A stretch of DNA of 64,000 nucleotides from Candidatus Bathyarchaeota archaeon RBG_16_48_13 (GTDB lineage Archaea > Thermoproteota > Bathyarchaeia > RBG-16-48-13): positions 123,761 to 187,760 of the forward strand of contig MEZH01000007.1 of assembly GCA_001775995.1 (NCBI GenBank), written 5' to 3'. Each line of letters opens with the position of its first letter. Within the stretch, counting starts at the first letter, position 1. The notes under the pieces were generated by a model, which searched no databases, had not been told where the DNA came from, and was given only the letters and a program-made list of their open reading frames with translations. Positions 769 to 52,293 of this stretch are shown piece by piece. The position numbers and the translations under genes were made by a program.

Positions 769-1476
769 ATGGAGATAATGGCGATAGTCACAGATGTGGA
801 TGGGACAATAACCGATGCTAGATCACGCCTGGAACTGAATGCGGTGAAAGAGATACGGCACCTTGAATCGATGAAGTACCAAGTAATAATCTCAAGTGGA
901 CGAACTTTTTGTCAGATAGCAGCTCTCAGCATCTATCTTGGAACCTCAGGGGTATTGATCTGTGAGAATGGAGGAGTAGTCGGTTTCAAAAATGGAGATA
1001 TTAGGACCATTGGTAAGAGGGAGAACGCTGAAGCAGGTTTAAAGATTCTGAGAGAAAAGCTAGGAGACCTGATCGAGATTAAGGGATTCCGTTCAATGTA
1101 TCGAATCATCGATATACCTTTAGAGCGCAACTTCCCTGCCGAGGTCGGAAACATGATTCTACGTGAACAACAAGTTCCTGCCCACATCCTCGACAGCGGA
1201 GTAGCTTTACACCTGATAGATAGAAGAGTCAATAAGGGCAGAGGACTCAGAAAGGCCTGCCAGATGATCAAACTGAAGCCAGCCAACGTTGCAACCATTG
1301 GAGACAACCTAAACGACGTTGATATGTTCAAGATAGCTGGATATAGCATAGCGCTTGGCAACGCCCCAGAGGAGGCAAAAAGAAGCTCAAACTATGCCTG
1401 TAAAGCTGAATATGGGAAGGGATTCCGAGAAGGCATAGCGCACCTATTCAAGGAAGGTATTCTGAAAAAGATTTGA
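769..1476 (+). CDS. HAD-superfamily phosphatase, archaeal phosphoglycolate phosphatase/Cof-like
   Basis: HAD motif I 'VTDVDGTIT' and motif IV 'GDNLNDVDMF' are present. Start chosen at the internal ATG at 769 (track ORF begins at 718). It lies next to the tpiA-fbp gluconeogenic pair. Confidence 0.6.
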   Translation: MEIMAIVTDVDGTITDARSRLELNAVKEIRHLESMKYQVIISSGRTFCQIAALSIYLGTSGVLICENGGVVGFKNGDIRTIGKRENAEAGLKILREKLGDLIEIKGFRSMYRIIDIPLERNFPAEVGNMILREQQVPAHILDSGVALHLIDRRVNKGRGLRKACQMIKLKPANVATIGDNLNDVDMFKIAGYSIALGNAPEEAKRSSNYACKAEYGKGFREGIAHLFKEGILKKI

Positions 1477-1581
1477 TCGGACAATTGCCTTGCTCCCTTC
1501 ACACGACCGCGGGGATTTGCATCAGCGTTTTTGCCGAAGTCATTATGATTTGCCAGAAGGCAATGTTGCAGTGCTAGAATA

Positions 1582-2283
1582 TCAGACGCCCTTCCGAGAG
1601 GTAACAGCCCGTGTCATGTCAAGTAACACTATTCTTGGATCCTTAGCTTTTACCAAGCCACTTGCTAAAAGCACACCCTCCGAGCCGAGTCTGAGGGCGG
1701 CGGCTACATCTTCTCCTGAAGTTATCCCAGCGCCACATAGAATGTGGACGCTTTCATTAACGCTCTTGGCAGTCTTGATGGTTCCACTCACCAGTTGGGG
1801 CTGAGCCTTTGAAACCGCGATGCCCGTTCCGATGAGTTGCGGAGGTTCTATTGATATTATCTCCGGCCCGAGGGCGGCCAGCGCAGCGCTGACTGATTCA
1901 CTGTTCGCGCATGCCACGGTCGTCAAGCCAAGCTCTTTAGATATGCGGATGGCTTCTGCTATTTCCGAAATCTTGAGCTGTCTTTCTGAGTGATTTATCA
2001 GAGTGCCTGTAGCCCCAGCCTCCTTGATGGCATCTGGGAGGACGCTTCCTGTGAATCCCCCAAAGGAAATCGGATCGACGTGTTGAGCAAAAATTGGAAG
2101 GGTTACCTCTTCAGCAAGTAATCTGATATCGCAGAATTGCGGGGCTAGGGACACGCAGACGCCTGTCTCGTTATGCACTTCCTCCGCGATCTTTGCGAGT
2201 CGTAGAGCATTACTTCCAGTAGCTTCGCGATATGCTTTGAAGTTCACCAATATTAATGGATATTTGATTTTTTGGGAGTTCAT
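1582..2283 (-). CDS. tpiA: Triosephosphate isomerase (archaeal type)
   Basis: Archaeal TIM length (233 aa), 'LINHSERQ' catalytic region and 'CGAGI' loop motifs. It overlaps fbp by 4 nt, suggesting an operon. Confidence 0.85.
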   Translation of the reverse strand: MNSQKIKYPLILVNFKAYREATGSNALRLAKIAEEVHNETGVCVSLAPQFCDIRLLAEEVTLPIFAQHVDPISFGGFTGSVLPDAIKEAGATGTLINHSERQLKISEIAEAIRISKELGLTTVACANSESVSAALAALGPEIISIEPPQLIGTGIAVSKAQPQLVSGTIKTAKSVNESVHILCGAGITSGEDVAAALRLGSEGVLLASGLVKAKDPRIVLLDMTRAVTSRKGV

Positions 2284-3377
2284 GACTTGACAAAACGGCC
2301 CTTCAGTTTTTCCAATACTTGAGGCATGGTGGTATACTCCATCTCATCGGGGGGCAACCTGTGCGGCATGAAGGGACCGTGTCTCCTCATATAATCCGCG
2401 ATTTCGCTGGCTTTCCGTCTAGTCTCGTCGTAAGCGCGATCGTCAAACATATCCGCCGGTCCGATGAGCTCACCGTCACATAGCTGGAAGCCGAGGGCTA
2501 CAACTCTTGGAGGACCATCAAACCTAGTGCATTTAGCATCCTTAACAGAAACTGGCATAATCGGTCCAACATGGCTCCCTCTCATCCAGCCGGCCACCAA
2601 ATGCGGGAAAGCGAAAGGCTCCAAAGCTTCTCCAGCAGCGGGAAGACCGTGTTGTACTCGCACGATAGCGACTGGATCATCCTTTCCCACATATTTCCCA
2701 GCTATGAGCGATAGCCGTTGAGTACTTGCAACGGCGCCGAGAAGGTTGTCAATGTGCCTGTGGATAGATCTTATGACGTATTTGTGCTGTGTTCCTATCA
2801 GTGCCAAGAGGTCGTAGATCTCGGAAGGAGCATGAAGGCGGACCGTGGAACCTTCTTCCACATCCAAGACCTCAAAGTCGAAGCCTCCGTGAAGACTAGG
2901 ATCAATGATCAGACCGGCTGTGCAGAATGGATCGGCGAAAATCCGGTATAGCGGAAAATTCCAAGCACCTGGCTCTGTTTTGTCTGCTGCAAAGACTATA
3001 AGAGGTTCGCTTGGTCTTTCCTCGATTTCCATCTCAGCTACACCTGGGCCAAGTCCCTTGACATTTCCAGAGAATGAGTCGGTTAGAAGATCCTGACCAG
3101 CTGCGTACAGATGCATTTTTTTTGATAGGATAGCAACGTCTTTGAACGTGTCCCACGCAAGTTTATGTATTTCACGGTTGTCTATTCCCTTCCCATGAGT
3201 TAGTACCATATTTATGTCGTCGCCGCAATTGAAAACATAGAAGTCAGTTATCTGTCCATCTTTCTTGGCTTTGTCCAGCAATTCTTTAGTCAGATCCAAT
3301 TGCTTTGGGTGTACAACATGATGACCCGCCAATGATCCCACATCAGCTTTGATAACGCTTAACGAGGTTTTGGCCAA
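2280..3377 (-). CDS. fbp: Fructose-1,6-bisphosphate aldolase/phosphatase (class V FBPase)
   Basis: N-terminus 'MAKTSLSVIKADVGSLAGHH' is the signature of archaeal bifunctional FBP aldolase/phosphatase. Length 365 aa. Confidence 0.9.
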   Translation of the reverse strand: MAKTSLSVIKADVGSLAGHHVVHPKQLDLTKELLDKAKKDGQITDFYVFNCGDDINMVLTHGKGIDNREIHKLAWDTFKDVAILSKKMHLYAAGQDLLTDSFSGNVKGLGPGVAEMEIEERPSEPLIVFAADKTEPGAWNFPLYRIFADPFCTAGLIIDPSLHGGFDFEVLDVEEGSTVRLHAPSEIYDLLALIGTQHKYVIRSIHRHIDNLLGAVASTQRLSLIAGKYVGKDDPVAIVRVQHGLPAAGEALEPFAFPHLVAGWMRGSHVGPIMPVSVKDAKCTRFDGPPRVVALGFQLCDGELIGPADMFDDRAYDETRRKASEIADYMRRHGPFMPHRLPPDEMEYTTMPQVLEKLKGRFVKS

Positions 3378-50320: not shown

Positions 50321-50962
50321 CTACTCTCCCTTCTTTGCTTCTTTTCCGCCCTCTCTTGCCAGAGCGGCCGTCTTGAGCATTTGCTTCTTGACGCCTACGA
50401 CCCTTCCAGATCTTCCAGTGGTCTTGGTTCTCTGACCCCTGACCTTGAGCCCGAGAGAATGGCGAATGCCCTTCCAACTTTTCATGTTTTTCATAAAGTC
50501 TATGTCAGATTTAAGCCGCAGAGTAAGGTCCGGGCCTATCAGATGAATATTATGGCCAGTCTCAAGATCCTTACGACGATTCACCAGAAAAGCAGGAATC
50601 CCTTTATCAGTAGGATTTCGCAAGAATTCCTCAATTTTCTCAATATTATCTTCTGTCAGGTACCCCAATCGCATGTTAGGGTCCAGACCCATCGATTTCA
50701 GTGATGCTTGGGCCAGATTAACATTTACTCCTTTAACTCTACTCAGACCGTAGAGGAGTTTTCTGGAACCATCCAAGTCAGTTCCAAAGATGCGTACTAT
50801 ATGACGATAAGATTCAGACACTGAGAACCTGCTCCTTCTCCTATATGCCATCCCTGTTTTATATATTGCCTGTCTTTCGCGTGCAGAGATAACGAGTTTC
50901 ATCAGCCTCATATTAAAGTTATCGCCAAAGTGACCATTCGGAAAGCGCTTTTGACTGGGCAT
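50321..50962 (-). CDS. rps13: 30S ribosomal protein S13 (uS13)
   Basis: 'YRHIVRIFGTDLDGSRKL...GIRHSLGLKVRGQRTKTTGR'. The true start may be an internal Met at about 50851. Confidence 0.85.
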   Translation of the reverse strand: MPSQKRFPNGHFGDNFNMRLMKLVISARERQAIYKTGMAYRRRSRFSVSESYRHIVRIFGTDLDGSRKLLYGLSRVKGVNVNLAQASLKSMGLDPNMRLGYLTEDNIEKIEEFLRNPTDKGIPAFLVNRRKDLETGHNIHLIGPDLTLRLKSDIDFMKNMKSWKGIRHSLGLKVRGQRTKTTGRSGRVVGVKKQMLKTAALAREGGKEAKKGE

Positions 50963-51022: not shown

Positions 51023-51130
51023 TGGCGCCGGGAGTGGGATTTGAACCCACGTGCCCCGGAGGGGGCACAGGCTTTCCAGGCTTGAGCTGTTAACTTTTAT
51101 CTGCTCCCTACCAGACTAGGAGACCCCGGC
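51023..51130 (-). tRNA. tRNA-Ser(GGA), class II, with 19-nt BHB intron at 29/30 (51082..51100), CCA encoded
   Basis: Acceptor GCCGGGG/TCCCGGC (G7-U wobble), discriminator G. D-stem is 3 bp with an 11-nt D-loop TAGTCTGGTAG. The spliced anticodon stem is CAGGC/GCCTG with loop CTGGAAA. A 17-nt variable-arm hairpin is present, and the T-arm is GTGGGTTCAAATCCCAC. The intron BHB has central helix GAGC/GCUC with each cut 2 nt downstream. Confidence 0.6.
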
Positions 51131-51257
51131 ATGTATTAGTTACTAGTTCTCAACTTTCCTCTCAGGACCAAGTATTTCTGGGTTTCCGAAGATCTTCGTC
51201 GGCGGTTTTGCTTGAGTACTGACTTTACAATGGAGCGGTACAAACATAACATCTTCA

Positions 51258-52293
51258 TCAGCCTTTGTCGTTTTCAGTTTTGCGCGTCTGCCACATCCTG
51301 GGATAGGTTCCAGGTGACATCAGCACCCTCTCTGATTTGGCCGCTATTCCATGATCAAAGTTTAGGATATCATCAGTCGCCATGGCGGCTTTCGCGAGCG
51401 CAACAACTTCGCCCTTCTGAGTAAAGAGCGCAACTTCATCGTTAGCCTTTATATCGCTTTCCAAACTCACCACGCCTGGGACAGCGAGACTTGCCCCATG
51501 GCAGATGGCATCCACTGCAGAATCTCTCAGATAGATCTTGGGTATGAATTTCAAGCAATCTTCCATTGGCCGAACTATGTGTCTCACCTCTTCCTCGTTT
51601 CCTTCCTTCAACCACTTCGAGCAGGCATCTGAAAGGGTCTGCAGTGTAGTGAGAGAACGGTCTTCCACGAAGGGGCCAGTTCTTGTCCTTCGGAGTTCTC
51701 TCATATGAGCGCCGCATCCTAGAACTTCCCCGATATCGTAGCATATCTTCCGAATATACGTGCCTCCTTGACAACTCGTATGAAACAAGACGTGGTTCTG
51801 CGATATCTCCAGAACCTCCAAGCTGTAAATAGTCCTTATTCTGACTTCTCTTTTGACAGAAGAGCGAACGGGAGGCTTCTGATATATTGGTCCGACAAAC
51901 TCTTTGAAGATTCTCCTTATAGCTTCCTCAGATGCCAAGCCATGGAGCCTCATTACACAAACATATTCTTTTCCCGTAAGAAGAAGAGACTGAAGACTTT
52001 TCGTAGCCTCCTCTAAGGCTATCGGTAAGACGCCAGATACGTTGGGGTTTCCTCGACCTTCCCTAGATCTCTAAGGTCCCACCGTGTCCGGCGCGTTCGA
52101 TATTCATAATCCGTTTAACCCAAGCAACAACCTCATGGCTTGTAGGCCCCGGAGGTTTATCCAAATTTATTACACCATACCTGAGGTGGTTTCGAAAAGA
52201 TCTATTCTCAGGCGTACAACCATACTTTGGATCGGTCTCCTCAGATGCCTTAGCCAGGAGGCTGCGCGTGATCTCCCAAGGGGGAGTTGCCAA
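51258..52293 (-). CDS. cbf5: H/ACA snoRNP pseudouridine synthase Cbf5 (TruB family + PUA), interrupted by a 22-nt BHB mRNA intron; join(complement(52071..52293),complement(51258..52048))
   Basis: Exon 1 ends '...INLDKPPGPTSHEVVAWVKRIMNIERAGHGGTL'. Exon 2 continues '(D)PNVSGVLPIALEEATK...KEYVCVMRLHG...YQKPP...' in a different frame. Removing 52049..52070 restores the catalytic 'GHGGTLDPNVSG' motif and a 337-aa protein. Confidence 0.75.
52049..52070 (-). other. Predicted bulge-helix-bulge mRNA intron within cbf5 (AGAUCUAGGGAAGGUCGAGGAA)
   Basis: Fold: exon GGG / CCUU / AG|A / GAUC-loop-GGUC / GAGG / AA|A / CCC exon. This gives two 3-nt bulges separated by a 4-bp helix, with each cut after the second bulge nucleotide. 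Confidence 0.65.

Follow-up and report, generated by a model that had tools for sequence, protein, structure and literature searches.

A class II tRNA-Ser(GGA) gene with a 19-nt intron at position 29/30 in an uncultured Bathyarchaeia lineage

Introduction

The bond between tRNA positions 29 and 30 is listed among the non-canonical intron sites of archaeal tRNAs in a review (PMC4090602), which refers to Marck & Grosjean 2003 and Sugahara et al. 2008 for introns at this site in Thermoproteales and other Crenarchaeota, and the split tRNA-Ala genes of Caldivirga maquilingensis are divided at the same point (PMC4090602). Cleavage of a BHB motif takes place between the second and third bulge nucleotides (PMC2738675), and according to a footnote in PMC7714728 the strict form, hBHBh', is defined by two flanking helices of at least two Watson-Crick pairs each. 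Relaxed motifs are cut by endonucleases of the (alpha-beta)2 and epsilon2 types (PMC4033280), and the (alpha-beta)2 type with its L1 loop is conserved in TACK and Asgard archaea (PMC5829648). In Aeropyrum pernix, introns at non-standard positions of pre-tRNA-Thr are cleaved by an (alpha-beta)2 endonuclease (PMC3241643). A BHB intron is also known from the crenarchaeal cbf5 pre-mRNA; the 2009 survey reported it only in Desulfurococcales and Sulfolobales, but not in Thermoproteales, Cenarchaeum, Nitrosopumilus or Korarchaeum, and proposed its origin in the common ancestor of Desulfurococcales and Sulfolobales (PMC2738675).

Here we describe a tRNA-Ser(GGA) gene from the uncultured Bathyarchaeia lineage RBG_16_48_13, located in a stretch of 64,000 nucleotides that was analysed as a whole and is referred to as the window. 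Its intron shares with the known 29/30 introns and the Caldivirga splits the insertion site in the 5' strand of the anticodon stem, and with the former also the logic by which pairing between intron and exon builds a relaxed BHB with cuts after the second bulge nucleotide. The known 29/30 introns belong to hyperthermophilic crenarchaeal hosts, whereas the site is found here in tRNA-Ser(GGA) of an uncultured Bathyarchaeia lineage and, rather than being sporadic, is common to at least 53 related genes with covariation. An earlier note on this DNA had considered 29/30 introns to be restricted to a few crenarchaeal genera, which does not hold: they are common in tRNA-Ser(GGA) genes of the Bathyarchaeia type and occur in one Jordarchaeia MAG, and as the host is itself a Bathyarchaeia MAG, it is not one of the crenarchaeal genera named there (Pyrobaculum, Thermofilum).

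The canonical strict hBHBh' intron at 37/38 has the same presumed enzyme and chemistry, the 3-4-3 geometry and a 4-bp helix in common with the intron in the window, which differs in being placed 8 nt upstream, inside a stem, and in having no intron-side helix. Its central helix is built from D-stem nucleotides and nucleotides 26-27, that of the canonical intron from anticodon-loop nucleotides. Most relatives of the gene in the window, among the matches listed, carry a 37/38 intron as well. The Aeropyrum pernix introns, which concern a different tRNA, site and organism, provide an experimental precedent for the removal of non-standard introns by a heterotetrameric EndA as it is proposed here. 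The crenarchaeal cbf5 intron is likewise a relaxed BHB handled by the same endonuclease, but resides in a protein-coding transcript and not in a tRNA.

As 29/30 is already on the list of known sites, the finding adds a further case to a known phenomenon. New are the Bathyarchaeia host, the tRNA species and the sharing of the 29/30 site, with covariation, by many uncultured relatives; our literature search returned no paper describing tRNA introns in Bathyarchaeota.

Results

Gene structure and splice junction

The minus strand from 51130 to 51023 consists of GCCGGGGTCTCCTAGTCTGGTAGGGAGCAG (exon 1), ATAAAAGTTAACAGCTCAA (intron) and GCCTGGAAAGCCTGTGCCCCCTCCGGGGCACGTGGGTTCAAATCCCACTCCCGGCGCCA (exon 2), giving a pre-tRNA body of 108 nt and a spliced length of 89 nt, with the following elements:

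51023..51130, minus strand: intron-containing tRNA-Ser(GGA) gene (ARAGORN after in-silico splicing and unique cloverleaf solution)
51101..51130, minus strand: exon 1, tRNA positions 1-29 (ARAGORN, strict enumeration)
51082..51100, minus strand: 19-nt intron ATAAAAGTTAACAGCTCAA between tRNA positions 29 and 30 (sole cloverleaf-restoring deletion; variable in close relatives; empty-site alleles)
51023..51081, minus strand: exon 2, tRNA positions 30-76 (ARAGORN, strict enumeration)
51075..51077, minus strand: anticodon GGA, positions 34-36 (ARAGORN; invariant across family members)
51026, minus strand: G73 discriminator (sequence)
51025..51023, minus strand: encoded CCA (sequence)

Exon 1 holds the 5' strand of the acceptor stem, the D arm, G26 and then C27 A28 G29 of the anticodon stem, and exon 2 comprises the remaining anticodon arm, a 17-nt variable arm, the T arm, the 3' strand of the acceptor stem, G73 and CCA. 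Upon deletion of 51082..51100, ARAGORN returned an 89-nt tRNA-Ser(GGA) with a full cloverleaf, featuring an acceptor stem of 7 bp (one G-U), a D stem of 4 bp, the T arm GUGGG/CCCAC and exactly the anticodon arm that had been predicted for the 19-nt removal, with stem CAGGC/GCCUG and loop CUGGAAA. The long variable arm UGCCCCCUCCGGGGCAC, G73 and the serine anticodon GGA agree with the class II tRNA-Ser identity given in the earlier note. Two details of that description had to be adjusted: the variable arm is long as claimed, but the 7-bp hairpin stem drawn for it borrows G43 of the anticodon stem, the actual stem having 5-6 bp, and the 11-nt D loop is obtained only with a 3-bp D stem, the 4 bp of ARAGORN leaving a loop of 9 nt.

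In the raw 64-kb window, no tRNA was called by ARAGORN, with or without the intron option, and none by Rfam at the gathering threshold; at E ≤ 10, Rfam matched only T-arm and 3'-half fragments at the tRNA locus. Weak Rfam matches with E = 0.5-7 (plastid UTR elements, Tymo tRNA-like, mascRNA, SNORD49-like) were dismissed as T-arm/3'-half fragments or noise. Intron-less members of the family reach 50-64 bits on Rfam RF00005, whereas those with introns escape detection; standard tRNA finders thus overlook the gene because its intron sits at an unusual site. In seven loci (L001, L002, L006, L027, L070, L071 and L080), ARAGORN with the intron option gives the orthologue a false intron and a wrong label, namely tRNA-Gly(ACC), Ser(GCU), Thr(GGU), Lys(CUU), Arg(CCG) or Asp(AUC). 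A search of the 64-kb window for T-arm plus acceptor pairing yielded no disrupted tRNA besides tRNA-Ser(GGA).

ARAGORN proved permissive at the locus, returning a tRNA of one kind or another for 261 of 3,474 single deletions, in many cases Leu(CAA). The locus nevertheless stands far from chance: 30 random segments of the window, taken through 100,746 deletion variants as a control, produced no call at all. Because the ARAGORN deletion scan was too permissive, we relied on a strict cloverleaf enumeration together with comparative evidence. The enumeration covered every single deletion of 0-44 nt, starting anywhere from tRNA position 8 to pre-tRNA base 70, which lies beyond the anticodon arm, and demanded an anticodon stem of 5 bp, U33 within a loop of 7 nt, a D loop of 7-12 nt and no fewer than 3 bp in the D stem. 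A single deletion passed, namely the 19 nt from 51100 to 51082, and a canonical 37/38 intron is thereby excluded. A better canonical 37/38 solution, which the earlier note had itself named as the outcome that would overturn its reading, was found neither by ARAGORN nor by the strict enumeration. In the window lineage 29/30 is the sole intron of tRNA-Ser(GGA), the gene in the window having no intron at 37/38. With comparative support from the relatives described below, these results confirmed that the minus strand from 51130 to 51023 is a class II tRNA-Ser(GGA) gene with a 19-nt intron at 29/30, placed as originally proposed.

Splicing motif

The elements assigned to the splicing motif are:

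51103..51106, minus strand: central BHB helix, exon strand GAGC, tRNA positions 24-27 (MFE and centroid folds; covariation in 49-53 homologues)
51084..51087, minus strand: central BHB helix, intron strand GCUC (folds, covariation, register control)
51100..51102, minus strand: 5' splice bulge A28 G29 ↓ A(i1), cut 51101/51100 (folding)
51081..51083, minus strand: 3' splice bulge A A ↓ G30, cut 51082/51081 (folding, family comparison)
51107..51110, minus strand: exon-side helix h, 5' strand U20 A21 G22 G23 (pairing)
51077..51080, minus strand: exon-side helix h, 3' strand C31 C32 U33 G34 (pairing)

The perfect 4-bp helix GAGC/GCUC, claimed from the outset together with cuts 2 nt downstream of the respective helix strand (AG↓A and AA↓G), was predicted for the pre-tRNA by MFE and centroid folding alike and has counterparts in at least 53 homologues. 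Positions 24-25 of its GAGC strand belong to the D stem of the mature tRNA, and the MFE fold of the pre-tRNA contains no more than the central helix and a D stem in a shifted position. On the exon side, the pairs G23-C31, G22-C32, A21-U33 and U20-G34 of helix h close the 3' bulge, with all four consecutive pairs present in the window, L081 and L083. Helix h competes with the mature D stem, and the structure constrained to contain it has -6.0 kcal/mol compared with -6.7 for the local MFE. The intron-side helix h' is absent from the same three genes, which show 0-1 pair: the 5' cut lies within a loop of 15 nt, for whose closure no more than a single U-A pair (i2-i13) is available, and forcing this pair costs energy (-1.5 versus -6.0 kcal/mol). 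For the 3' bulge, AAG is the commonest form, occurring in 30 of 53 family genes among the matches listed.

The designation as a BHB is hence to be read in a restricted sense. Its central helix of 4 bp, the cuts after the second bulge nucleotide and the restoration of a canonical tRNA by excision are those of a BHB intron, but the strict hBHBh' form does not apply, helix h being present and h' missing. Because the intron-side helix is missing and the 5' cut falls in a loop, we assign the motif to the relaxed type (hBH / bulge-helix-loop). Given this departure from strict hBHBh', excision would depend on a broad-specificity enzyme, and since both the central helix and helix h use D-stem nucleotides, the pre-tRNA would have to refold before cleavage.

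Relatives and empty sites

Exact protein matches placed the window in Candidatus Bathyarchaeota archaeon RBG_16_48_13, on a contig of 323 kb. The best S13 matches in the genome collection were Bathyarchaeia MAGs with 50-63% identity. Closer relatives are L081 and L083, whose S13 proteins are 95% and 78% identical to that of the window, respectively, and a second MAG (GCA_035256105.1), which has the same proteins as the window, agrees with it completely in the tRNA region (L205). The exons of L081 and L083 each show 2 differences from the window in 89 nt. Their 29/30 introns, ACAAAATGTGAACAGCTTAA with 20 nt in L081, where the gene occupies the same place as in the window, and ATCAGAAACAGCTCAA with 16 nt in L083, differ by several substitutions and indels, and the pairing to GAGC is kept (GCUU and GCUC, respectively). 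The region upstream of S13 contained no tRNA in L083 and L084, and the L083 gene was found further upstream. Exon 1 (30 nt) is identical in the window, L081 and L160, the last of which is intron-less at 29/30. In-silico splicing of the genes from L071, L002, L081 and L083 gave a tRNA-Ser(GGA) call in each case.

Eight Bathyarchaeia MAGs (L070, L071, L080, L001, L002, L006, L027 and L036) carry a tRNA-Ser(GGA) gene with introns at both 29/30 and 37/38, one Jordarchaeia MAG (L059) combines the 29/30 intron with two more, and three Desulfurococcales MAGs (L043, L054 and L067) have an intron-less tRNA-Ser(GGA) upstream of rps13. A metagenome scan with a pattern permitting 0-30 nt at each of 29/30 and 37/38 recovered at least 120 loci; among the matches listed, 89 have a recognisable tRNA-Ser(GGA), corresponding to 86 distinct genes. 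Among these 86 listed genes, an intron at 37/38 only was found in 37, introns at 29/30 and 37/38 in 20, both of these plus an extra intron in the 5' exon in 19, 29/30 with the extra 5' intron in 3 and 37/38 with the extra 5' intron in 1; the remaining 6 are intron-less. As the only intron, 29/30 occurs in the window, L205, L081 and L083 alone, among the matches listed. Across the family (L085-L204, L001-L080), zero to three introns are present per gene, located in the D loop/5' exon, at 29/30 and at 37/38, and near-identical exons occur with and without an intron.

Altogether, at least 53 distinct tRNA-Ser(GGA) genes from Bathyarchaeia MAGs, metagenomes and the one Jordarchaeia MAG contain a 29/30 intron, the insert varying from 12 to 34 nt. 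At least 19 genes with the same exon-1 end, GGUAGGGAGCAG, join GCAG directly to GCCUGGA, and these empty sites fix the junction between G29 and G30 independently of folding.

Covariation of the central helix

Within the 53 distinct 29/30-intron genes listed, the central helix has 4 bp in 46 and 3 bp in 7, with helix types including GAGC/GCUC, GAGC/GCUU, GGGC/GCCC, GGGC/GCCU, GCGC/GCGU and GCGC/GCGC. In a register control on the same 53 genes, the mean pairing was 3.87 bp at the predicted offset and at most 1.6 bp at eight shifted registers, and none of 2000 permutations reached the observed central-helix pairing. A second set of data was obtained from an ungapped alignment of 29/30-intron homologues with 32 columns (A2). 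Here the central helix is 96% paired, and the pair between position 25 and intron position -4 is realised as A-U in 22 cases, G-C in 20, C-G in 2 and G-U in 1, with 4 unpaired. The covariation score in A2 was 0.266, compared with 0.143 after shuffling (0/500), and 88% of all cells were paired overall as opposed to at most 54% with the partners slid. Where an intron-side helix is present in the family, it covaries too (U-A, C-G, G-C). The pairing statistics of these homologues show that selection acts on the BHB of the tRNA-Ser(GGA) family. As the 29/30 site is common to at least 53 genes with covariation, we concluded that it is a long-lived, lineage-wide feature and not a sporadic one.

Genomic context and candidate promoters

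The tRNA gene is surrounded by an archaeal ribosomal-protein cluster, in which the order on the minus strand is secY, adk, cmk, L14e, cbf5, tRNA-Ser, S13, S4, S11, rpoD, L18e, L13, S9, rpoN and enolase. Its position between cbf5 and rps13 is shared by the window, L081 and the Bathyarchaeia MAGs L070, L071 and L080. In L205 (positions 1021..2501; GCA_035256105.1, DATEYS010000139.1), no gene is called between the L14e-like gene and S13, the gene calls omitting both the intron-split cbf5 and the tRNA.

Upstream of the tRNA, one candidate element was noted:

51166..51173, minus strand: candidate TATA-like box AAATACTT, located 36-43 nt before the mature 5' end (conserved block; weak)

It lies in an A+T-rich block, GGAAAC.CA.AAATA.TT, which is located 36-58 nt upstream and conserved in the window, L081 and L083, and A+T-rich boxes are found at comparable upstream distances in L070, L071 and L080. 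The upstream block weakly suggests that the tRNA-Ser(GGA) gene may have its own promoter. A separate motif, TTGGCGATAACTTTAATAT (50910..50928, minus strand), precedes the S13 start (50851) by about 60-77 nt and is conserved in the window, L081, L082, L083 and L084, even with a differing upstream neighbour. It falls inside the 213-aa extended S13 ORF of the ORF listing and probably represents the BRE/TATA promoter for the S13 operon. At 51256..51327 (minus strand), Rfam gave a weak match to SNORD49, a C/D-box family (13.8 bits, E = 1.2), which covers the end of cbf5 and the first part of the spacer towards the tRNA; inspection of this segment by eye revealed no convincing arrangement of C, D', C' and D boxes.

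The neighbouring cbf5 intron

The cbf5 gene next to the tRNA is interrupted as well:

52071..52293 and 51258..52048, minus strand: cbf5 exons, read 52293..52071 and 52048..51258 (in-silico splicing)
52049..52070, minus strand: cbf5 BHB intron AGATCTAGGGAAGGTCGAGGAA, 22 nt (in-silico splicing, fold)

The intron splits the catalytic Asp codon between its first and second letters (G↓AC) in GGTLDPNVSG, and the spliced frame encodes a protein of 337 aa in which the domains DKCLD, TruB_N (covering profile positions 1-149 of 149), TruB_C_2 and PUA are all complete. In the MFE fold, CCUU/GAGG makes up the central helix and AG↓A and AA↓A the bulges, and the helix on the intron side has 5 bp. The published cbf5 pre-mRNA intron of Crenarchaeota (Watanabe 2002; Yokobori 2009, PMC2738675) occupies this same site.

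Of 65 related loci with cbf5 coverage, 53 have the Asp codon interrupted at this point by an intron of 14-38 nt and 12 are uninterrupted, the sample being biased by the way in which the loci were collected. The loci with the intron include the Bathyarchaeia MAGs L003, L008, L012, L014, L070, L071 and L080, the Jordarchaeia/Freyarchaeota MAGs L032, L040 and L059, L081 and about 40 metagenome loci. A 4-bp central helix was found in 49 of the 53, in variants such as CCCU/GGGG or AGGG, CUCU/AGAG or GGAG, CACU/AGUG and CCUU/GAGG or AAGG. Our literature search found no report of a cbf5 intron in Bathyarchaeia or Asgard. The gene calls of L081 break cbf5 into two ORFs, one of 76 and one of 234 aa.

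When the whole window was scanned for BHB motifs joining ORFs, a first pass with 1,575 matches was uninformative and a stricter pass left 27. Beyond cbf5, these yielded no credible protein-gene intron; the other candidates that we inspected span normal gene boundaries, the supposed intron containing both a stop and a start codon.

Discussion

In the proposed mechanism, the 3' part of the intron, GCUC, pairs with GAGC of the exon (positions 24-27), giving the 4-bp central helix of the BHB, whereupon EndA, the archaeal tRNA splicing endonuclease, would cut after the second nucleotide of each bulge and an RtcB-type ligase would join the exons at the predicted junction ...GGGAGCAG-GCCUGGAAA... (G29-G30). 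The enzyme may be of the broad-specificity (alpha-beta)2 type described in the literature for TACK and Asgard archaea, and the relaxed BHB intron in the neighbouring cbf5 points indirectly to a host endonuclease that is active on relaxed motifs. Only after ligation would folding into the mature D stem (10-13/22-25) and the anticodon stem (27-31/39-43) become possible.

We consider it highly probable (about 0.9) that the locus is a functional class II tRNA-Ser(GGA) gene of a Bathyarchaeia genome, interrupted by a 19-nt 29/30 intron that is predicted to be spliced. The main competing explanation is a pseudogene, that is, a formerly intact tRNA-Ser(GGA) that lost its function through an insertion of 19 nt and was replaced in decoding by another copy or by tRNA-Ser(UGA/CGA). 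Such a reading would account for a locus unrecognised by standard tools and a splicing motif without its intron-side helix, but is very unlikely in view of exons that are strongly constrained next to an insert that evolves freely save for the 4 exon-pairing nucleotides. Both the insertion site and the pairing are moreover kept, with compensatory changes, in at least 53 genes, the locus is identical in two independent MAGs, and its position between cbf5 and rps13 is conserved.

Even less credit is due to a tRNA with other splice boundaries or another identity, for example the 'tRNA-Leu(CAA)' that results from deletions of 8-15 nt in the D-arm region. The numerous permissive ARAGORN calls at the locus would speak for it, but the strict cloverleaf criteria are passed by 51100..51082 only, the empty-site alleles fix the G29-G30 junction and the BHB register puts the cuts at exactly these bonds. 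Furthermore, the alternative 'anticodon' lies inside the intron and varies between relatives (CAA in the window and L083, UAA in L081, CAC in L071), in contrast to the invariant GGA. Equally improbable is the retention of the 19 nt as an extra arm of the mature RNA, or a different tRNA-like structured RNA at this locus. The insert varies between 12 and 34 nt across the family and, in the window lineage, lacks conserved internal structure; as long as it is not excised, no anticodon stem can form, and Rfam offers no other family beyond T-arm-like fragments. A role of the intron as a C/D-box guide was dropped, its 19 nt being too short and free of box motifs.

The tRNA-Ser(GGA) intron at 29/30 is spread across Bathyarchaeia and one Jordarchaeia (Asgard) MAG, and the cbf5 intron is additionally known from Desulfurococcales and Sulfolobales. 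It is conceivable, though in our estimate rather unlikely, that both are ancient orthologous introns inherited vertically. If so, the two introns and a broad-specificity endonuclease would predate the TACK/Asgard divergence, and the cbf5 intron would be much older than the origin proposed in 2009. A 5' AUUC/AUCC recurs among the introns. Alternatively, both may have arisen by repeated gain at hot spots, or by transfer.

For annotation, the only tRNA gene in the 64-kb window is one that is invisible to ARAGORN and Rfam. As such genes are missed or mislabelled, only BHB-aware tools will give correct tRNA complements and completeness estimates for Bathyarchaeia MAGs. Our view of tRNA splicing is unchanged by these findings, which extend a well-known crenarchaeal phenomenon to Bathyarchaeia and provide a covariation set of at least 53 genes for a relaxed 29/30 BHB. 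With one to three introns per gene and alleles in which introns are present or absent, this set may be used to study intron gain and loss as well as endonuclease specificity.
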